Shown piece after piece: positions 52,401-60,993 of a stretch of DNA of 64,000 nt. The notes beneath the pieces were generated by a model. That model was not told where the DNA came from, made no database searches, and saw only the letters and a program-made list of their open reading frames with translations. This stretch comes from Escherichia phage RB43. Position 1 is the first letter of the stretch, and each line of letters starts with the position of its first letter. The stretch lies in the sequence record NC_007023.1; one strand, 5' to 3'. The translations under genes were made by a program, and so were the position numbers.

Positions 52401-53088
52401 TCAGGGTTCAGTGTATCGCATGGCAACGGGTGCAACTGATTTGGTTGATGTTCTGACGGTCGGTGATGTTGGTAATGGTGTGCTGGCTTACTACGGTAAT
52501 ACATTGCGCCTGAACAGCAAAGCCCTGGCAAACATTAACGCAAACGGTGATGTTACTATTGCGAGTGATGCAAGCCCTACGGTACAATTACGGACTGCTG
52601 CAACTAATGGCTGGAACGGTGTTACCATCAGTAACGACAAAGGGACAACCACAGCAACGGTGATCAACACCAGAAACTTTACCCAGCACCTTGACAGTAC
52701 GTATGTCAACGTAACGGGTGATACCATGACGGGTGCGCTGTCTGTCAACGTTAGTGGTACTGGTGGACGCTTTACCAGTGTAAGCGGTACAGCACATATT
52801 CAGGCGGGTGATTTCTCTGGCCCGATCCAGAAAATGCGCTTAACGGGTATTAACGATCAGGTATTGACTGAGTTTAACATCAATATCACCGATTACACCA
52901 AAGCGATGATCAACGGGAACCTGATTTACCATGCAGGTCGCAAACCTACTCCGGCAGAAATCGGGGCTGTTGCGGTTGCTGGTTCGACAGTAGACACGCT
53001 GGTAGTTCGCAACTACATCAAGATCGGAAACGTAAAAATCTACGCAAACCCAGTCACTAAGACTTGTGAGTTTGAGTGGGAGGAATAA
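49429..53088 (+). CDS. 34: long tail fibre proximal subunit gp34
   Basis: 1219 aa; N-terminus (...GLDAAGEKVINVG...DGVNVD...NTVQQYDPARGY...PAGAF), repeats (TLANKTATETRRGIARLATTAEVNQNTT..F.DDIIVTPKKLNERTATE) and C-terminus (IKIGNVKIYANPVTKTCEFEWEE) match T4 gp34. Confidence 0.92.
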   Translation: MVAKSFRATSGLDAAGEKVINVGKASRSVLSDGVNVDFFNEFNTVQQYDPARGYSAFMAIIYARRIWYARADIASPAGAFDETKWISTRNDPKWVYNNVTSVDGLPVESGTYLMADGRFSELTYILPDAPVEGDIITIKDGGGMVGINSMLVRSNTRQIRLRDVQSSSYRLTHPYMTVAFIFNGNLWRVAEMLDNRDSQFVNATGAGSFQMQSGMTTFRNSGTGKITLQLPKYANDGDSITTYDLDKLSSVNVATLQVYPGSGHTITYDSINGVTSVASQRSGYGVFIFDQTNNRWVVYDGDNRVRLRRISYDLNMLPNDYVFVTPIAGNPPTIRNVTLTLPQDVAEGDRVYISMYMMGKTQNCTIKVKDGSGETIRTNKNMMQFPQRKDYPPDDWFSVTTLSFNADTDYLPYMELSYLKATKEWVVAQYRPLVERVDPTNRSRLGVIALATQAEVNKNLEDLPSDELAVTPRTLANKTATETRRGIARLATTAEVNQNTTATFLDDIIVTPKKLNERTATEDRRGILEIATQAETNAGTDDTTAITPKKLDTRRATETLAGIGKLVTTGATTAEGALRGDAGTNVYNFNNGVDLITPKSLNEKTATEKSKGLVVLATENEVITGAAAGSASMPIVVTPEMLHRKTSTEARIGLIEIATQTETNTGTDDTRAVTPKKLNDRKATETLDGIIALATTAEVAAGTVTNKAVVPVKLKEFFDVAGHIAVATADGLTQSGTIWTTVNLGIAAATETQRGTLRVATQAETNAGTLDTVIITAKKLQAKKATDTAEGIIRCATNSEAAAGTSTNLAITPATMQYLNGNDPAWGATTTRRGAVFITTKSNTFIGDNLVGSTQPVDSYLEDFYAVSPRGLNFALQNFLPKMATAQNSLSLGGVVAASWMRRDADQTVTGNNKYNGTSTFVGNVVTNGTLTANAAVTVNATVTTNNNINQSAKANTVYANTVLGTAAAGTKNLLRTFRGGTTDTTWHETVQGSVYRMATGATDLVDVLTVGDVGNGVLAYYGNTLRLNSKALANINANGDVTIASDASPTVQLRTAATNGWNGVTISNDKGTTTATVINTRNFTQHLDSTYVNVTGDTMTGALSVNVSGTGGRFTSVSGTAHIQAGDFSGPIQKMRLTGINDQVLTEFNINITDYTKAMINGNLIYHAGRKPTPAEIGAVAVAGSTVDTLVVRNYIKIGNVKIYANPVTKTCEFEWEE

Positions 53089-53094
53089 TATAAA

Positions 53095-54681
53095 ATGGCG
53101 AATAACGAATTCATGGCGTTATTCGGCCCTGATAGCTTTACGGCGAATGTGTTTTCAGAAGCAAACGCCGTAAAATATCGATTGGTTGTGCGTGGGGCTA
53201 ATTTAAGCTCCACACTCAACGCAATTGAGGTTTCTATCAATGGGGCTGATATTATAAACAGAAACACACAACGAGATCGCGGAATTAACCTGGCGATTAT
53301 TGATGGAACAACGTTAGCATTACTGGATTATAAGACATTTGATATGTATGGTGATCCTACTACGAACGGGAACGCGCTTAGGGACTATTTGGGTTCTCTT
53401 CCAGCGAATCGCATTGTGTGTTTTTATAGTTACGACGCAATAGGAAGTAACGCCAACTTTACCGCAATTATGCGTAAAATTGGTTCTGTTGCATGGCCGG
53501 AAGAACGTTTTTTCTCAACCGATGATCGTCGTCGTTCGTCGTATTCTGCCATATATTCATCAACCATGAAGAAAATCTGTATGGAAAACTTCGTGGGTGG
53601 ATCTGGCAGTATATCACAGGATGATACGAGAAGTTTTGTTGAAGTTGTGTTTGACGAATTCAGCGACATCGGCGTTACTGGTATTCCTGAACGTATGGTC
53701 GATGATGTACAAACGTATCAGAACAGCGGTTCATTATATGGATATCATGGGTATGGTTCATGGAATATAGGAACCGATGTTTTTCGTGGGGATATATTCA
53801 AAGTAACTGGTGATCTGTATTGTTCACAAGAACTTCGTGACGCTGGCGGGGATACGTATCTGTATATCTGGACAGAAACTGCTGGTGCGCAATGGGTAGC
53901 GTCTTCTCTGTTGCGTACAACAAACTTAACTCCTGATACGTGGCATTCTTTGTCTATATATTTCACGATCCCGCAAGGCACAGAAAATGTCAAGATGGGT
54001 TGTCAAGTATATCATTATCCGTCAACCGTAAACGTAGGTCTTTCTCAATGTCGAAATGTACAAATCAGTAAAGTACCGCGTGAAGAAGTAAACAGAAACG
54101 GTGCTGCAATTGGTGTGAACGGTGTGCGTATGCAGACGCTTTCCGAAGTTGACACAACCGGAACTGAAAACCCGATTGAACAGTTACTTTCATTGCCTGT
54201 ATCACCTGCTGGAACTCCGAGCAATAAAACGATTGTTTCGCATAACTTCACAGAACTTGATTATCTTGTTGCAGATCCAACGGAATATACATCAACCGAT
54301 ACAACCCAATATCTTGTTAAAGAGTGGGCTAATAAACAATATGACTTTGCAAAAGTGTCATTGAGTAGTGTCGGGGCTAAACCTGGTGATGTCATCCGTA
54401 TTGCGGGACAGCTTAAACGCGATGCGACCGCGATTGCCAACAATAAACGAGCATTCATAATCATGCAGTTCCTTGATGCGAATAATCAGTATATTGGCGC
54501 ACCACAACCAGTTATTATCCAGGATGTAAGCACAGTACCAAACGTGTATACATTCTATAAAAGCGAAGGTGTCGTTCCTGCTGGTGCTGTGAACTTTGAT
54601 TTCGGTTTTTATCGTTATCCGAGCAACACAAGCACAGGATCGGTGTCAGTTAAAGACGTTAAATTGTCTATCGTTCGTTAA
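53095..54681 (+). CDS. 35: long tail fibre hinge connector, gp35-like (by position)
   Basis: 528 aa ORF between gp34 and distal-fibre genes; no strong motif recognised; assignment by synteny. Confidence 0.55.
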   Translation: MANNEFMALFGPDSFTANVFSEANAVKYRLVVRGANLSSTLNAIEVSINGADIINRNTQRDRGINLAIIDGTTLALLDYKTFDMYGDPTTNGNALRDYLGSLPANRIVCFYSYDAIGSNANFTAIMRKIGSVAWPEERFFSTDDRRRSSYSAIYSSTMKKICMENFVGGSGSISQDDTRSFVEVVFDEFSDIGVTGIPERMVDDVQTYQNSGSLYGYHGYGSWNIGTDVFRGDIFKVTGDLYCSQELRDAGGDTYLYIWTETAGAQWVASSLLRTTNLTPDTWHSLSIYFTIPQGTENVKMGCQVYHYPSTVNVGLSQCRNVQISKVPREEVNRNGAAIGVNGVRMQTLSEVDTTGTENPIEQLLSLPVSPAGTPSNKTIVSHNFTELDYLVADPTEYTSTDTTQYLVKEWANKQYDFAKVSLSSVGAKPGDVIRIAGQLKRDATAIANNKRAFIIMQFLDANNQYIGAPQPVIIQDVSTVPNVYTFYKSEGVVPAGAVNFDFGFYRYPSNTSTGSVSVKDVKLSIVR

Positions 54682-54700
54682 GGGGCTTCGGCCCCTTTTT
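54682..54700 (+). terminator. rho-independent terminator
   Basis: GGGGCTTCGGCCCC hairpin followed by TTTTTC; followed by CATAAATA late-promoter-like box. Confidence 0.6.
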
Positions 54701-54773
54701 CATAAATACAGTCATTATAGGAGAATTTTATGGCTGATTTGAAATTAGGCACAACGTTAGGTGGTGCTGCTAT

Positions 54774-57002
54774 TTGGAGTGCTTCGAATCTCCGTTATTG
54801 CCGTCAGGTGGACAAATAACGTATAAAGGCTGGCGTATCTATACCGAAAATGATCGCCCGACAGCGGAAGATATAGGGGCGTTGTCTCTTGCTAATGGTG
54901 GTACTGTTAACAATGATACGACATTCACGAAAAATATAACCGTAGGCGTTAATGCTGTTGCGGGTGCATTGTTTTCTAGATCGTACATCGATATTACTCG
55001 CGCCGGAAGTGAACCAAACATTGTTTTTCGTCGTTCTGATGTTACTACTACGCCGACGACAGAACAAGCCCTTTTAATACTTAATGCTATGAATGGGGCT
55101 AACGTTACTGCGGGTACGTTTAATATTCATGCGCGTACTGATGGCGGGAACAAAGTTTATATTACTGCGTATAAATCGGGATCACAAAATACATCATTAA
55201 CGCTAGATTCGCAACTTCAACAGGTAACGGTAGAACAAGGCACTTTCCGTGTCACTGGAAATACTGTTCTTGCTGGTGCAACTGCAACCACGTTAAACGT
55301 TACTGGGGCGTTGACTGCACAAACGGTTACTCCGGCGAACTGGCAAAATCACGATGTTCGTTATATGACGGGTATTCCGACCAACATGCAGGGAAATAGC
55401 CTAAGCGCTGCTGTTGTTACCGAAAAGAATGATGTTCTTTCCGTAAACGGTAACTTGGTTGATGGTCCTTATGGCGATAATACCTACGTGGGCCAGGTGG
55501 TAAACTATCGCCGCACGTCGAATGCGAGCAACTCGATCACTCAGTTCTTCCTTGATGGTACTGCTTTCCATATCCGTACAGGTTCTGGATCTCCTGGTGC
55601 TTGGTCTTGGACGGGTGGAGGTGCTAACGGTTGGCGTAAAGTGTATGATGAAAGTCACAAACCTACTCCGGCAGAAATCGGTGCATTGAAAAATACTACC
55701 GATACATTGAACGGTGAATTGGGTGTTATCGGTGATGTTTCTTTAAAATCACCTACAGGTCGTCATATTAAATTCGTGTATACGAAAAATGATGGTACTC
55801 AGATTGTTGATGGGTTTATCTACAAAGACGGACCTGATGCTGGTAATCGTCGTTCCGGTATTCGCATTAACTGTTATACGCCGAATAAAGAAACTGGTAA
55901 TGGGGAGTTTTCCGGTGAATTCATTTTCAACGAAAATGGTAGCTTTATTCTTCCTCCTGGCGGCACAATATATCAGGAAGGTATAACACCAGGTCTTTAC
56001 GCAAACGTTATATTAAGTGCCGCTGCTGCTGGTACTACATCATACCTTCGTAAATTCCGAGGTGGTGGCCCTGATACAATATGGCATGAGGCAGTTCGAT
56101 CTAACGTATACGCTTTGGGAACTGGCGCGACATATTCAAATGAAGTAATGACTCTCGATGACACTGGTAATCTGTCTATCAAAGGAACCCCGTCAACATC
56201 AACGAACGTTTTCCTGGATAGTGACGCAAAATCTGTTATTTGGTTTAGACATTCCGGCGGTGCGGAAAAAGGCGTTGTGTGGGCAGAGAGTGATGGTAAA
56301 TTAAAATTACGCGCAAATGCTGGCGGTTCTGCTACTTATGAGTTTTATGCTGGTATGATACACTCACAATACCCCGTATCAGGTACAGATCGCGGTATTA
56401 TTCGCGGTACTCCTGATGGGGGTGGTTGGGATCAATGGCGTGAACGTTCTGCTGCTGTATCTGTTGATGTTCCCGGTGTCAATAATAGCGCATACAGTAT
56501 CTGGAAAGCAACTTCATGGAATAACACCTATGTTGCTGCAATTGGATGTTCATATGCCCGAACTTTACACCAGGCGCCGGCCCGTGTTCGTCTGGTTCTG
56601 CAAAGTTCTGTTGCTTTCTACTTCGATGGTGATGGTAGCTTTAGTACAAGTACAGGGAACATCACGGCAGGTAATAGTGGTTACTTTAACGATGTGTATA
56701 TTCGTTCTGATGAAAAATTGAAAAGCAATTTCAATAAGATTGAAAACGCATTGGATAAGGTTGAACTGTTGAATGGTTTGACTTATGATAAAGCAAGCTA
56801 TATCGGTGGCGAAACTGTTAAGCGCGAAGCTGGTTTGATCGCACAGGAACTGCAAAAGGTATTACCGGAAGCCGTATCTGTTGGTAAGGATACCAAAGAA
56901 AACGAAGTGCTTGTTATTTCGCCAACTGCAACTATTGCATTACTGGTCGAAGCAATCAAAGAACTGCGTGAAGAAGTAAGGGAACTCAAATCCCGACAAT
57001 AA
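54774..57002 (+). CDS. long tail fibre distal subunit paralogue A (gp36/gp37-like) with C-terminal intramolecular chaperone domain; conserved N-terminus is in another frame from ATG 54730
   Basis: ORF track start is TTG 54774; upstream ATG 54730 frame encodes MADLKLGTTLGGAAIWSASN (gp36-type N-terminus) then stops 54819; body has GG.PDTIWHEAVR and C-terminal ...DVYIRSDEKLKSNF...GREAGLIAQELQKVLPEAV (S74-type chaperone). Confidence 0.7.
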   Translation: MECFESPLLPSGGQITYKGWRIYTENDRPTAEDIGALSLANGGTVNNDTTFTKNITVGVNAVAGALFSRSYIDITRAGSEPNIVFRRSDVTTTPTTEQALLILNAMNGANVTAGTFNIHARTDGGNKVYITAYKSGSQNTSLTLDSQLQQVTVEQGTFRVTGNTVLAGATATTLNVTGALTAQTVTPANWQNHDVRYMTGIPTNMQGNSLSAAVVTEKNDVLSVNGNLVDGPYGDNTYVGQVVNYRRTSNASNSITQFFLDGTAFHIRTGSGSPGAWSWTGGGANGWRKVYDESHKPTPAEIGALKNTTDTLNGELGVIGDVSLKSPTGRHIKFVYTKNDGTQIVDGFIYKDGPDAGNRRSGIRINCYTPNKETGNGEFSGEFIFNENGSFILPPGGTIYQEGITPGLYANVILSAAAAGTTSYLRKFRGGGPDTIWHEAVRSNVYALGTGATYSNEVMTLDDTGNLSIKGTPSTSTNVFLDSDAKSVIWFRHSGGAEKGVVWAESDGKLKLRANAGGSATYEFYAGMIHSQYPVSGTDRGIIRGTPDGGGWDQWRERSAAVSVDVPGVNNSAYSIWKATSWNNTYVAAIGCSYARTLHQAPARVRLVLQSSVAFYFDGDGSFSTSTGNITAGNSGYFNDVYIRSDEKLKSNFNKIENALDKVELLNGLTYDKASYIGGETVKREAGLIAQELQKVLPEAVSVGKDTKENEVLVISPTATIALLVEAIKELREEVRELKSRQ

Positions 57003-57003
57003 G

Positions 57004-57030
57004 AAAAGCCCTTCGGGGCTTTTTCTTTTT
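57004..57030 (+). terminator. rho-independent terminator
   Basis: AGCCCTTCGGGGCT hairpin followed by TTTTCTTTTT. Confidence 0.65.
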
Positions 57031-57037
57031 ATAAATA
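57030..57037 (+). promoter_or_regulatory. T4-type late promoter -10 box (TATAAATA) upstream of second distal-fibre gene
   Basis: Exact TATAAATA 27 nt upstream of ATG 57064. Confidence 0.5.
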
Positions 57038-57063
57038 TCATAAAAGCATTTGAGGATCTAATA

Positions 57064-59502
57064 ATGGCAGATTTAAAATCCGGTACTACCATAGGCGGTA
57101 ATACTATCTGGAGTCAGGCTAATTTGCCTTTACTCCCTACTGGAAACACACTAACGTATAAAGGCTTCAAAGTCTATACGGAAAATGATAAGCCTACAAA
57201 AGCTGAAATAGGATTAGGTAACGTTACCAACGACGCACAGGTCAAAAAATCCGGCGATGAAATGACGGGTGATCTGACACTAAAGAACAATACTCAGTTA
57301 ACGGTTCCTCGCCGTATTAACCTGATTGCTGATACTGCGGGGAATGCTCCTTATCTGTTAACTACTCGTTCAGATAACAACGCGGTTACAGATCCGTTCC
57401 CGTCACAGCATACTCGCACGTTTACTTTGTTTGTCAACACAAAATCGAATACTTCCGATCCTTTTGGTGGTGCTAACCTTGCTGCTCTATTATCGCATCA
57501 GTCAACTACTGGGGCAGGTTCTATCGAACTGCAAGCATATGATGCACCAAACAAGACAACAGGCGCTACGGGAATTCTACGCGCTCAGATTGGGCTTAAT
57601 GGGTGGGATGGTTCAATTAACCTTTCCGGTGCTTCGTTAAACGTTGGTATGAGTACAACGGTCAGTGGTAACTTAACAGGAACCCAACTGATCACAAAAG
57701 GCGACGGAAACCGTAACGTCGAATTCCGTGATGCTGGCGGTAACGAATTAGCAATGATATTTGCTGATACTGGTAAAAACTTATATGTTCGTTCAGGTGG
57801 TTCTTATGTAACACGTTTCGCTGCTGATGGTACTCTTATTCTGGCAAACGGTTTGACCGCACCACGTCAAATTTTTGTTAATGGTGCTGGATTGCCAGCA
57901 AACAACAGCTTGATTCGACTTGATACAAGCACTGATGGAAACGCCTCTGGTGACGGCGCAACGCATCTTGGTGTGAAAGCTGATGATGGGAAATTTTATC
58001 ATTATTTCCGTGGTGCTGGTACGATGTTCATCGACGTGAAAGGTGGAATATCTTCTTCAACCCCGTTGTATATGAATGGAGTTGATCAGGCATTACCCAA
58101 AATTGAAATGTTGTCAACTGGTGCGGCTGGCGGTAAAAACTTACTACGTCGATTCCGTGGTGGTCTTCCTGATATTATATGGCATGAAACTGTTCAGCAG
58201 GGTGAATATAAGCTGATGACGGGTAACACCGATAGTGAAATGCAACTATGGGTTAGTGCTAGTGGTGCTGGTCGAGGTGGTGCAATTTACGGTGGTACGT
58301 TTACGGCTGATCGCGGTAATGATGGATTCAAGATCCGTTATAAACCTGCAACAGAATCAGCAATGTTCCAGATATGGAACAGAGATACGAGTGTATTGAA
58401 CTCTTATTTCGGATACGGGTCAAGTAATCAGGCAACAATTAACCTGTATAACCGATTAGGTGATATTGCTGTTTCTACTCCGAACGCTGCGTTCCGGTTA
58501 GATAATACTTTATTAACGCTTGGTAGTTCATCGTCAGCACAAGCCAGTAGTCAAACATTCTATATCCAAAACTGGGGTAATTCTGGTCGTCCTGCTGTGT
58601 TTGAAGTACATGATGATACGGGTTATCATTTTTATTCACAACGAATGCCTAATGGAAACGTAGAATTTCAAACTTCTGGCAATCTGACCGTCAGTAACGG
58701 CGCATACATTTATGGCGGCAATGGCCTAGAAATTCGTTCTAATGGAAACCGTCATGTATGGTTTAAAGATAACGCAGGTAGTGAAAAGGTTGTTATTTAC
58801 GCCGAAGATGATGGCGGGTTGAAAATCCGTACTACGAGTCAGCAATATTCAACTCGTTTTGGTGACGGCATGATTCTAACTACAGGTGCTGCAACCACTG
58901 GAGGTGATAAAGGTTTACTCCGTGGTACTGTTCAGGGTGGTGCGTGGGTCGCATGGCGTGACCGTGCTGCTGGGTTGTTGGTGGATTGTCCTAACTCCAG
59001 AAACGAAGCATACAGCATCTGGAAAGCTACACACTGGGGCGATCAGCATATTGCCGCAATGGATGTCTATGCGGGTGGCGGCAATCCAGTTGTAGTTATG
59101 CACGTTGGTGGTGCTGATTTTTCCTTCGACAATGGTGGTCAATTCAAAGCCAGTGGTTATATTTACTCAGGGGCACATGGTGATTTTAACGATGTGTATA
59201 TTCGTTCTGATATCAGGCTGAAATCTAACCTAGTTGAACTGAAAGATGCACTGAGTAAAGTCGAACAGCTTAAAGGTTATATCTACGATAAGAAACTGAA
59301 AGTCGAAGATGATGAACCTAATGGTCGTGAAGCGGGTATTATTGCTCAGGATCTTCAAAAGGTTTTACCGGAAGCAGTAAGAGAAAACGAAGAAACCGGA
59401 ATGTTGACGATCTCCCCGTCAAGTGTTAACGCGCTTCTGATTACGGCAATCAATGAATTGCGTGAACGTCTGGAAGCAATCGAACGGAAAATAGGGGCGT
59501 AA
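57064..59502 (+). CDS. long tail fibre distal subunit paralogue B (gp36/gp37-like) with C-terminal intramolecular chaperone domain
   Basis: 812 aa; N-terminus MADLKSGTTIGGNTIWSQANLPLLPTGNTLTYKGFKVYTEN matches T4 gp36 N-terminus; GGKNLLRRFRGGLPDIIWHETVQ and ETVFEVHDDTGYHFYSQR like T4 gp37; C-terminal DVYIRSDIRLKSN...GREAGIIAQDLQKVLPEAV chaperone domain. Confidence 0.8.
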   Translation: MADLKSGTTIGGNTIWSQANLPLLPTGNTLTYKGFKVYTENDKPTKAEIGLGNVTNDAQVKKSGDEMTGDLTLKNNTQLTVPRRINLIADTAGNAPYLLTTRSDNNAVTDPFPSQHTRTFTLFVNTKSNTSDPFGGANLAALLSHQSTTGAGSIELQAYDAPNKTTGATGILRAQIGLNGWDGSINLSGASLNVGMSTTVSGNLTGTQLITKGDGNRNVEFRDAGGNELAMIFADTGKNLYVRSGGSYVTRFAADGTLILANGLTAPRQIFVNGAGLPANNSLIRLDTSTDGNASGDGATHLGVKADDGKFYHYFRGAGTMFIDVKGGISSSTPLYMNGVDQALPKIEMLSTGAAGGKNLLRRFRGGLPDIIWHETVQQGEYKLMTGNTDSEMQLWVSASGAGRGGAIYGGTFTADRGNDGFKIRYKPATESAMFQIWNRDTSVLNSYFGYGSSNQATINLYNRLGDIAVSTPNAAFRLDNTLLTLGSSSSAQASSQTFYIQNWGNSGRPAVFEVHDDTGYHFYSQRMPNGNVEFQTSGNLTVSNGAYIYGGNGLEIRSNGNRHVWFKDNAGSEKVVIYAEDDGGLKIRTTSQQYSTRFGDGMILTTGAATTGGDKGLLRGTVQGGAWVAWRDRAAGLLVDCPNSRNEAYSIWKATHWGDQHIAAMDVYAGGGNPVVVMHVGGADFSFDNGGQFKASGYIYSGAHGDFNDVYIRSDIRLKSNLVELKDALSKVEQLKGYIYDKKLKVEDDEPNGREAGIIAQDLQKVLPEAVRENEETGMLTISPSSVNALLITAINELRERLEAIERKIGA

Positions 59503-59513
59503 TGCCCCTCTTT
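59494..59513 (+). terminator. hairpin terminator overlapping stop
   Basis: GGGGCGTAATGCCCC followed by TCTTT. Confidence 0.45.
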
Positions 59514-59527
59514 AAAGAGGTAAAATT

Positions 59528-60052
59528 ATGGCAATTGTTGGAGTACCCGGATGGATCGGGTCGTCTGCGGTAGCAGAAACAGGACAGCGTTGGATGTCTG
59601 CGGCGGGTAGCGCTGTTCGAATTGGTGCGCCTTTCTGGATGTCCCAAATGGCAAACCAATCAGTATATAATATTTCAATACCAATATTCGAACGATATTA
59701 TAAAGGTATTCGTTATCGTGGTTGTTGGAATACTGGATGGAATCTCCCTTTATCTAAACCTGGTTGGAACGCTACTCCTGGTGGTAGTTTTAACGGGCTG
59801 GCTTACGGGACTTGTGTTGCAGTGCAAAACTATCTCGATGGTGAATATAGCGTATTAACTATTCAAAGTGGTCCTGCTGCAAACTTTCGACTCACTACTG
59901 ATGACGGTGCGGTGTTTAACTTTATTGATACCGGACGATATGACGCAGGATATCGAAACTACAAAATCGATCCTAGTCAACATGTGGCATGGTTCGACTA
60001 CCTTAATGCTCGTATAGGACAAACAAGACAAGGACTAGTTGCTATAAGATAA
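59528..60052 (+). CDS. 38: gp38-like tail fibre adhesin/assembly protein
   Basis: 174 aa; N-terminus MAIVGVPGWIGSSAVAETGQRWMSAAGSAVRIG matches T4 gp38 N-terminus; no glycine-rich segments. Confidence 0.8.
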   Translation: MAIVGVPGWIGSSAVAETGQRWMSAAGSAVRIGAPFWMSQMANQSVYNISIPIFERYYKGIRYRGCWNTGWNLPLSKPGWNATPGGSFNGLAYGTCVAVQNYLDGEYSVLTIQSGPAANFRLTTDDGAVFNFIDTGRYDAGYRNYKIDPSQHVAWFDYLNARIGQTRQGLVAIR

Positions 60053-60112
60053 ATATGTTCGGGGGTTGGGAATCCCCGACCGAGGGTATAAAATGGCGCT
60101 ATACAAGATAAA

Positions 60113-60736
60113 TTGGCTGTGCTTGAACGGGTAATGTCGTTCATCATGGCGGTCAAAACGTGGAAACAGCTTTTCATCAAATTGATTCTTATCGTAACAA
60201 TTTTCATTATGTTTATTACATGGTACAAATGGGATGACCTGTTTGCAGTATGGAAATCATCTTCGAGCGTGATCGATGTTCCCACAATGGAGATCGAAAA
60301 AGCAAAAAAGTTTGAATCCGCATCCATTGAACAGTTAAACATAGTGCATTTAACTACGGGTGCGGATTTTTCGGCAGTCTTTGGGTTCAGACCTAATAAT
60401 GTCAATTATTTTGTTGATATAATTGCGTATGAAGGGAAGTTACCGCAACAGATTGATCCGAAAAATCTGGGTGGCTATCCTATAGATAAGACATCGGAAG
60501 AATACAACAGACATATAAACGGGCTACCGTATATCTCAGATATCGCAAGCCCGTACCTTCCGACAAAAAATCTTGTTCCGGTAGTCTACACCTTTAGTTG
60601 TCCTTACTTCAATCTCGAAAACTACTATTCAGGATCAATCTTAATGGAATGGTATAAACAGAAGCCCGAAGTCACCGACATGAAGTTAATGATCGTGTGC
60701 AATCAGGCCGCTAGAATTTTAGGCAGGATTCGATGA
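60113..60736 (+). CDS. t: holin (t), lysis inhibition-type; true start uncertain (TTG 60113, ATG 60134, or ATG 60093 with frame change)
   Basis: ...ESASIEQLNIVHLTTGADFSAVFGFRPNNVNYFVDIIAYEGKLP...LGGYPIDKT...SCPYFNLENYYSGSI...QAARILGR matches T4 holin T; conserved residues (DKLAVLERV) extend upstream of first canonical start. Confidence 0.85.
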   Translation: MAVLERVMSFIMAVKTWKQLFIKLILIVTIFIMFITWYKWDDLFAVWKSSSSVIDVPTMEIEKAKKFESASIEQLNIVHLTTGADFSAVFGFRPNNVNYFVDIIAYEGKLPQQIDPKNLGGYPIDKTSEEYNRHINGLPYISDIASPYLPTKNLVPVVYTFSCPYFNLENYYSGSILMEWYKQKPEVTDMKLMIVCNQAARILGRIR

Positions 60737-60760
60737 TAATTTCAGTTTCGTTTTTTCCAA

Positions 60761-60799
60761 AGCCCGATTGATGAAGTTTTTAACTTTCGTCATCGGGCT
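60761..60799. terminator. long hairpin between convergent genes (bidirectional terminator)
   Basis: AGCCCGAT...ATCGGGCT 8-bp stem with partially paired interior; T/A-rich flanks. Confidence 0.55.
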
Positions 60800-60993
60800 T
60801 TTATCGTATATATCCCACGTTCGCATAAGTTCATACGGTGTAGGAATATATTCATCGTTCCAGTACCCACATTCCCTATCGTAATGCGCCGGAAACCAGC
60901 CTCTGCGGTGTAATATACAAAGAACCCAGCCTTACCCACAGGCGCTACCTTAAAACCTCGTGTAGCGGCTTTCATTGCTTCTTCGTGTGTCAT
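60790..60993 (-). CDS. hypothetical protein
   Basis: 67 aa from ATG overlapping upstream stop (TAATGA); ORF track lists TTG-extended version to 61008. Confidence 0.4.
   Translation of the reverse strand: MTHEEAMKAATRGFKVAPVGKAGFFVYYTAEAGFRRITIGNVGTGTMNIFLHRMNLCERGIYTIKAR

Follow-up and report, generated by a model that had tools for sequence, protein, structure and literature searches.

The duplicated distal tail-fibre genes of Escherichia phage RB43: comparative evidence on the possible use of two fibres with a common anchor

Long tail fibres determine the host range of T4-like phages. In Escherichia phage RB43 (sequence record NC_007023.1), two tandem paralogous genes for distal tail fibres, both on the + strand, lie between the gene of the hinge protein gp35 and that of gp38. 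We analysed a stretch of 64,000 nt of this record (the window), in which a reading of the sequence alone had pointed to the pair, here called gene 1 and gene 2, as alternative fibres that share a gp36-type N-terminus. The arrangement is not a discovery. The 5.5-kb RB43 record AY266307 names the genes of the locus 'gp 36-37.1', 'gp 36-37.2' and 'gp 38', with notes on the likeness of the N-terminus to T2 gp36 and on a second gene built like the first. Trojet et al. (2011) stated that RB43 and Aeh1 'have duplications of g37', called the role of the duplication unclear and took the fibre size to indicate one trimer (PMC3157838). For the same locus of the same phage, the gp36-like N-termini, the paired organisation and the gp38 adhesin are described in AY266307 and in the available text of the 2011 paper, so that the present work is a rediscovery of a described locus. 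What it adds is comparative evidence on the function of the duplication, the question left open in 2011. Compared with AY266307, the window has a one-base deletion in gene 1 and further private indels; neither the variants with one fibre or a disrupted gene nor the distant relatives with two fibres, treated below, figure in the available part of the 2011 account.

A megablast search with positions 53000-60800 of the window returned RB43 isolate GVA (HE981739, HE858210) with 99.9% identity across the whole query, AY266307, and about 60 related genomes of phages infecting Citrobacter, Cronobacter, Enterobacter, Klebsiella and Escherichia. Besides gp34, gp35, the two fibre genes and gp38, the open reading frame (ORF) table of the locus includes a T-type holin (Table 1). 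A terminator precedes each fibre gene, and the one upstream of gene 1 matches the spot of an annotated terminator in phage Miller. As read from the sequence, the CATAAATA ahead of gene 1 is one base off the T4 late-promoter motif, which is exact ahead of gene 2; gene 1 has a good Shine-Dalgarno sequence. The terminators, the exact motif and the tandem pair itself were all seen where the sequence-only reading had placed them.

Table 1. Features of the tail-fibre locus, in positions of the window
Feature	Position	Strand	Remarks
Conserved ORF, 475 aa	47946-49373		directly upstream of gp34
Exact TATAAATA, late-promoter motif	49391		ahead of gp34
gp34, proximal half-fibre, 1219 aa	49429-53088	+	syntenic with annotated gp34 in Miller and RB16
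gp35, hinge or 'knee-cap', long form, 528 aa	53095-54681	+	Pfam ILEI at 62-132; phrog_1154
Hairpin GGGGC-TTCG-GCCCC with T-run, then CATAAATA	54682-54710	+	hairpin part 54682-54700
Gene 1 (gp36-37.1), 756 aa once the T at 54791 is restored	54730-57002	+	AY266307; phrog_5667, phrog_1425
Single-base deletion site (TT to T)	54790-54791	+	this record alone; first 20 codons out of frame
Three extra single bases (56542, 56557, 56577) in gene 1 tip	56542-56577	+	
Peptidase_S74 chaperone domain, gene 1	56706-57002	+	predicted cut before Ser at 56706 (SDEKLK)
Terminator hairpin (57003-57024), then exact TATAAATA (57030-57037)	57003-57037	+	
Gene 2 (gp36-37.2), 812 aa	57064-59502	+	residues 1-44 gp36-type anchor
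Peptidase_S74 chaperone domain, gene 2	59206-59502	+	predicted cut before Ser715 (SDIRLK)
gp38, short-form tail-fibre tip adhesin, 174 aa	59528-60052	+	Gp38_N; phrog_1121
Seven private single-base indels	54791, 56542, 56557, 56577, 60102, 60865, 62701		

Both proteins end in a Peptidase_S74 domain (Pfam PF13884), which scores 54.7 bits in gene 1 (E 1.3e-14) and 59.5 bits in gene 2 (E 4.1e-16) at a curated gathering cut-off of 22 bits; the RB16 orthologues of both genes likewise lie above the cut-off. The cleavage motif of such domains was defined from the endosialidase of K1F, with Ser911 and Lys916. Both RB43 proteins have a Ser with a Lys five residues on, within the common sequence VYIR-SD(E/I)(K/R)LKSN (VYIR-S-DEKL-K in gene 1 and VYIR-S-DIRL-K in gene 2; Ser codons at 56706 and 59206), and cleavage there would leave predicted mature chains of 658 aa and 714 aa, respectively.

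At the other end, both proteins begin with the anchor MADLK.GTT.GG..IWS.(A/S)NLPLLP.G..(I/L)TYKG...YTEND.P. It aligns with gp36 of five other genera, namely Slopekvirus (Miro), Jiaodavirus (JD18), Krischvirus (JSE), Tequatrovirus (ACG-C40) and Karamvirus (PG7), conforms to the wider gp36 consensus MADLK.G.T.GG..IW...N.PL.P.G..L.YK..K.Y(T/S)E..KP, and is matched to T4 gene 36 by tblastn. The gp36 family PHROG 1425 covers residues 1-225 of gene 1 and only residues 1-50 of gene 2. The gp36 body domain PF03903, which occupies gp36 residues 60-190 and scored 89.6 bits in the Miro and 29 bits in the ACG-C40 protein used as controls, gave no match in the first 200 aa of either protein at E values up to 10. 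The 756-aa and 812-aa proteins show no similarity to the gp36 C-terminus, which makes the joint to gp37. The gp37 N-terminus (MA.LK.IQFKR...) is absent from both and the gp36 anchor stands in its place, and the N-terminal gp37 halves of Miro, JD18, ACG-C40 and PG7 gave no match beyond isolated short motifs. In size, too, the gene products depart from gp36, which has about 220 aa, and they end in a gp37-type tip followed by the chaperone domain.

The two proteins are 67% identical in the first 40-residue window, 44% identical in the last 260 residues and only 10-27% identical between. How they relate to gp37 is best seen in Miro, of the sister genus Slopekvirus, which has a gp36 of 222 aa, a gp37 of 1270 aa with S74 and a gp38 of 175 aa. 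From residue 36 on, gene 2 is collinear with the distal 730 aa of Miro gp37 (residues 36-75 correspond to 538-577 with 60% identity, residues 555-810 to 1032-1269), and residues 465-755 of gene 1 correspond to 1005-1268, so that each protein spans from the gp36 N-terminus to the gp37 C-terminus. The tip and chaperone regions are 41-48% identical over about 260-330 aa to gp37 of ACG-C40, a T-even relative with a T2-type gp38, and of the RB49-like JSE, share the motifs WR(D/E)R, IWKAT.W, AAMDV and FNDVYIR-SD with gp37 of phages that use a gp38 adhesin, and match the gp37 chain of S16 in PDB entry 6F45 (E 2e-10 and 6e-4). The body block LLR.FRGG..D.IWHE also occurs in gp34, with 50% identity between residues 414-481 of gene 1 and 949-1016 of gp34 and 52% between residues 349-413 of gene 2 and 963-1026 of gp34. 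With the domain search, the gp36 alignments and this block, the domain structure proposed from the sequence alone is borne out: judged by their sequences, both proteins are full fusions of a gp36 N-terminus to a gp37 C-terminus, with a chaperone domain of the self-cleaving type whose cleavage is predicted.

The point at which gene 2 turns from gp36-like to gp37-like is marked by the motif VYTENDKPT.AEIG, the start of the longer junction sequence VYTENDKPT.AEIG.GNVTNDAQVKKSGD.MTG.L at 57169-57288 (gene 2 residues 36-75). The motif is also present at boundaries between modules in several genera, within gp36 in JSE and PG7 and within gp37 in Miro and JD18. It is likely a recombination hotspot, and an origin of the fusion by recombination at this motif is therefore plausible.

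The 174-aa gp38 has Gp38_N (PF21721; 77.1 bits, cut-off 25, E 1e-21) as its sole Pfam match and matches phrog_1121, the 'tail fiber adhesin' family of short adhesins, over its full length. Caudo_TAP (PF02413), the domain of the T4-type gp38 and Tfa chaperones, was not matched in Pfam. The C-terminal 120 aa are unrelated to gp38 of ACG-C40 or PG7, and the RB43 gp38 alignment holds no glycine-rich segments of the kind that make up a polyglycine-rich receptor-binding domain. RB43 gp38 has been shown to be the host-range adhesin and no chaperone, with about 50 T6 gp38-like residues followed by a novel C-terminus, and a host-range variant of RB43 maps to its residue 100, where the mutation for K-12 is written Q to R (PMC3157838). 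Residue 100 is also the sole difference in gp38 between the window and RB43-GVA (59825; CAA Gln in the window, AAA Lys in GVA), and the window thus holds the non-GVA type. In most T-even relatives, the gp37 chaperone cleaves itself off and the tip is then occupied by a gp38 monomer, which serves as receptor-binding protein (PMC9569957). The sequence-only reading had remarked that gp38 is retained beside fibres with their own chaperone. The apparent paradox was drawn from T4 and dissolves here, where gp38 is an adhesin of the T2/T6/S16 type (PMC9569957, PMC3157838). In phage UPEC03, the slot after gene 2 (L031 6466-7278) holds a 270-aa polyglycine-rich gp38 of the T2/S16 type and not the short form of 172-174 aa; adhesin types therefore seem exchangeable on such tips.

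Across the genus, both fibre genes are under purifying selection, with ratios of nonsynonymous to synonymous divergence (dN/dS) of 0.1-0.3; for gene 1 the ratio is 0.11-0.23 with dS reaching 1.6. In both genes the first 40-residue window, the anchor, is 87-100% identical among genus members; the distal 250 aa are swapped for unrelated sequence. Four tip types of gene 1 were found among eight phages. The tip of RB16 has 12-20% identity to that of Nando in gene 1 and 15-22% identity to that of GAP161 in gene 2. The similarity of gp38 follows that of the gene 2 tip (Spearman 0.76-0.82) and not that of the gene 1 tip (0.27-0.57). The same is seen in dS, which between RB43 and Miller is 0.96 for gene 1, 0.17 for gene 2 and 0.02 for gp38, and between RB16 and GAP161 is 0.20, 1.36 and 1.39, respectively. 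gp38 co-varies with gene 2, not with gene 1. Nearly all of the 62 records have both genes, and most of the annotated ones list two distal-subunit coding sequences (CDS). A count of records with two places that match the gp36 anchor was discarded as an overcount, the second place in Slopekvirus and Jiaodavirus probably being the internal VYTENDKP of gp37. Scans of IMG/VR with gp38 and gp35 gave 14 and 6 loci, mainly from the same isolates.

Natural variants with a single or a disrupted fibre gene provide evidence on what gene 1 is needed for. Klebsiella phage Fraggle_ER53 (L011 5239-7461) and Enterobacter phage Taquito (L012 4242-6455) have one distal gene between gp35 and gp38, in each case a chimera of the 5' end of gene 1 and the body of gene 2. 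The crossovers lie at different points, one after codon 42 and one after codon 17, and therefore indicate independent deletions by recombination between the paralogous anchors. In Taquito, which has no gene 1, the anchor is of the gene 2 type from residue 18 on. Judged from these two genomes, chimeric anchors work and the body of gene 1 is dispensable. In three further phages gene 1 is disrupted: Lw1 (L016 4146-4200) has a 14-nt deletion in codons 6-10, its annotated CDS beginning at an internal ATG; UPEC03 (L031 1934-2115) has a perfect tandem duplication of 91 nt in the anchor, which minus one copy gives an ORF of 743 aa; and IME-CF2 (L030 1830-4101) has two frameshifting single-base deletions. 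Altogether, gene 1 is deleted or disrupted in 5/13 phages inspected and gene 2, intact in all, in 0/13 (Fisher p = 0.04). If the frameshift of the window is counted as well, gene 1 is affected in 6/13 (Fisher p = 0.015).

More distant relatives were found through the long form of gp35, with 39-47% identity; L040, L036 and L039 among them are metagenomic. In L040 (10637-15731), a MADLK-anchored fibre gene with S74 comes first, then a Gp38_N adhesin gene of its own, a Caudo_TAP chaperone gene and the gene of another anchored fibre; the fibre in first position has its own adhesin and therefore must be terminal. L036 (9627-14188) has two anchored fibres that lack S74, each followed by a small Tfa-like ORF, and L039 (10625-15112) has two anchored fibres with similar C-termini that share one small ORF. 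A single distal fibre gene accompanies the long gp35 in Pectobacterium phage POP12. In the KVP40-like Vibrio phage VH7D (L014 5161-6699, 12001-16200), two proteins share nearly identical gp36-type N-termini (MAELRSTTAIGG...); one has 512 aa and lacks a chaperone domain, and the other, of 1399 aa, has an S74-like motif at its end. The interval between the two holds a further pair of large fibre-like ORFs.

Taken together, we consider it somewhat better than an even bet that the two genes make separately attaching alternative fibres, a core fibre from gene 2 and an accessory one from gene 1. Each gene would give a separate complete distal half-fibre whose gp36-type anchor of about 45 residues presumably docks at the knee, formed by gp35 and the C-terminus of gp34, and whose S74 chaperone would trimerise the fibre and then cut itself off. 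With gp38, gene 2 would make the core receptor-binding fibre in the manner of T2 and S16, its cleaved tip capped by a gp38 monomer. Gene 1 would supply a second fibre with an independently exchangeable tip, probably for a different receptor and possibly for a surface polysaccharide. The anchors are interchangeable. The fibres would most likely compete for the six knees, giving mixed virions, and on hosts without the gene 1 receptor a loss of gene 1 would be tolerated or even favoured. The comparison with related fibre loci speaks against ordinary gp36 and gp37 equivalents arranged in series, as no gp36-gp37 joint is present and phages without a working gene 1 exist in nature; this part of the sequence-only reading stands. 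Its other part, competition for the same hinge and a dual host range, is inferred.

Several points weigh against this reading. Some of the gene 1 disruptions are single-base events and possibly sequencing errors, and the UPEC03 genome is partial. Gene 2 adjoins gp38, which confounds their co-variation. Both tips share the blunt end G.FNDVYIR, so gp38 might cap both fibres, in which case the argument for two specificities would be weaker. Together the two mature proteins would have about 1372 aa, close to the roughly 1396 aa of gp36 plus mature gp37 in Miro, which fits an arrangement in series. We found no literature on virion proteomics or fibre imaging for any Pseudotevenvirus. Trojet et al. 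left undecided whether a mixture or a single copy is expressed (PMC3157838), and the docking partner of the gp36 N-terminus is unresolved in T4 (PMC5537660).

The alternative that survives best, although we hold it unlikely, is a forked fibre: both distal half-fibres would sit on every knee, the long gp35 offering a second docking site, so that each of the six long tail fibres would be bifurcated and carry both receptor specificities. It draws on gp35 itself, which has 515-533 aa throughout the clade with fused, gp36-N-anchored fibres (most of whose members have two) and 371-382 aa in genera with a single gp36. Alignment with the gp35s of 371-382 aa shows that the long form consists of a canonical gp35 (about residues 1-375) and a C-terminal beta-sandwich of about 150 aa, which is weakly similar to residues 190-300 of the same protein (E 1e-4). 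In an AlphaFold model (mean predicted local distance difference test score, pLDDT, 75.6; domains mostly 80-93, linkers poor), gp35 is predicted to comprise a FAM3/ILEI/POMGnT1-stem-like domain and two CBM-like beta-sandwiches; Foldseek returned FAM3/ILEI-like folds and aligned the sandwiches to a tandem CBM22 pair. All modelled folds are of carbohydrate-binding type, and the last sandwich would be the clade-specific extension. On this model, the extra sandwich could be a second docking site or make a lectin-like knee. Branched fibres with chaperone-domain proteins are also known from the T5-like phages DT57C and DT571/2 (cited in PMC9569957).

Against forking stands POP12, which combines a long gp35 with one distal fibre; this also led us to reject the long form as a strict marker of a fibre pair. 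Taquito and Fraggle_ER53, which have a single distal fibre gene, retain the gp35 extension as well, and no solved structure of gp35 or gp36 was found that would place the docking site of the anchor. Furthermore, forking predicts that loss of gene 1 is neutral. The repeated independent losses agree somewhat better with competition, because a fibre that occupies a knee and does not bind the laboratory host would be costly, an argument from plausibility. That gp35 of Pseudotevenvirus and relatives holds two half-fibres through their common anchors, possibly with a lectin-like knee in addition, is in our view a doubtful generalisation, a little less probable still than forking as such.

Considerably less credible is a role for one copy only, gene 1 being redundant, decaying or not incorporated, or only one gene being expressed at a time. 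The losses and disruptions of gene 1 among the inspected phages and its imperfect promoter motif, CATAAATA, would agree with it, and expression of a single copy was raised by Trojet et al. (PMC3157838). Yet most of the genus has an intact gene 1, in line with the two distal-subunit CDS of most annotated records. Its low dN/dS holds over the large dS given above, its anchor is as conserved as stated, its tip is actively exchanged, its Shine-Dalgarno sequence is good and two fibres are kept in the distant relatives.

Least probable among the three, and already disfavoured, is the reading implied by most genome annotations, in which gene 1 stands for gp36 and sits on the knee, and gene 2 stands for gp37, joined to the cleaved tip of gene 1 and capped by gp38. 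The genes do occupy the positions of genes 36 and 37, gene 1 keeps the longer match to PHROG 1425, and the summed length would restore a distal half-fibre of T4 length (gp36 plus mature gp37 of T4 amount to 1247 aa). The gp36 C-terminus and gp37 N-terminus that form the joint are missing, however, and the gene 2 anchor is near-invariant while, within the genus, unrelated sequences replace one another in the gene 1 tip; a tip obliged to bind an invariant anchor is not expected to vary so. Lw1, IME-CF2 and UPEC03 are viable although their gene 1 is disrupted, and their gene 2 is intact and has its own anchor; the largely gene 2-type anchor of Taquito works with no gene 1 at all, and the first fibre of L040 is terminal. 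A heterotrimer of both proteins is implausible in view of their dissimilar shafts of unequal length.

Among known fibre systems, the tips of the T2/T6/S16/RB49 type (PDB 6F45) resemble those of RB43 in the gp37 tip with a C-terminal chaperone and in the attachment domain of gp38. RB43 differs in lacking a separate gp36, in having the N-terminal half of gp37 replaced by a gp36 anchor, in having two such genes and in a gp38 C-terminal domain that is not polyglycine-rich. T4 gp36 shares its first 45 or so residues with both RB43 proteins, which lack PF03903 and the gp37-binding C-terminus, whereas T4 gp36 lacks a chaperone domain. Aeh1 and the KVP40-like Schizotequatrovirus have more than one distal fibre gene per genome, as RB43 does, with other gene sizes and accessory genes. 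The lateral fibres of the T5 family (the L-shaped pb1; LtfA and LtfB of DT57C) are matured by a C-terminal S74 chaperone as well, on a siphovirus collar rather than a myovirus knee. The RB43 tip with its chaperone is 36-42% identical to 'tail fiber protein' genes of the phages GSP044, STG2 and SE7, which have genomes of about 110 kb and which we take to be T5-like; these phages, in whose fibres the tip domain family occurs, presumably lack gp38. That gene 1 of RB43 binds O-antigen is a conjecture. In DT57C-type phages, two fibre proteins give two specificities (cited in PMC9569957), and in Aeh1 each copy of the duplicated g37 is followed by a small ORF (PMC3157838). Resistance to the two-fibre phage Nando was traced to wzzB (O-antigen) and resistance to the one-fibre phage Taquito to rfaQ (lipopolysaccharide core) (PMC12578640), an anecdotal contrast that is suggestive as to the receptor of gene 1.

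If RB43 does carry two alternative fibres on a shared anchor, the anchor would be a natural plug-in point for host-range engineering, and a therapeutic phage grown on a single host could lose gene 1 and, with it, part of its range unnoticed. Nando and Taquito, of the same genus, are already part of a therapeutic cocktail (PMC12578640). Pairs of one-fibre and two-fibre phages such as these would be ready material for the question of what the duplication is for, which dates from 2011.

In the window itself, gene 1 is not intact. ATG 54730 opens a frame of 29 codons with a stop at 54819. The main frame (TTG 54774, as listed, to 57002) goes on in the -1 frame. A T is missing at 54791 compared with AY266307, HE981739 (RB43-GVA) and Miller, and in the alignment with RB16 the window shows a one-base gap within the stretch around this position; in the other RB43 records gene 1 encodes an intact protein of 756 aa. 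Across 15 kb, window and RB43-GVA differ by 2 substitutions and seven single-base indels (Table 1), each of which shifts a frame that is intact in GVA. AY266307 has the GVA state at every differing site within its span, and Miller and RB16 side with GVA wherever the sites can be aligned. Three insertions within 36 nt turn 12 residues of the gene 1 tip into IGCSYARTLHQAP, where the relatives have MDVHMPNFTPGA, and abolish the AAMDV motif kept by every relative and by gene 2. The indel at 60102 lies just inside the holin frame, so that the ORF of the window begins at TTG 60113 and not at the ATG of GVA, and the remaining two, at 60865 and 62701, disrupt two small ORFs of the reverse strand that GVA has intact. 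Among four private indels away from the start of gene 1, three sit in short runs and one is that just inside the holin frame.

Given the number of private indels that break frames, including one at the 5' end of the holin gene, the gene 1 frameshift is probably a sequencing error of this record; a real mutation of the stock may be the alternative and would fit the gene 1 losses in relatives. Programmed frameshifting was rejected: the site, AAT CTC CGT, does not form a slippery heptamer, Miller and the other RB43 records have the base that the window lacks, and six further private indels exist. The 20 out-of-frame codons reported by the sequence-only reading are real in the window and, as biology, likely an artefact.

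Upstream of the fibre genes, the conserved 475-aa ORF (Table 1) has a same-sized counterpart in the equivalent place, 5' of gp34, in L036, L039 and L040; the gene tables of L039 and L040 record no Pfam match for it. Its N-terminus reads MIF.T.ECVPSSGKTKAILN in the window and in L036.

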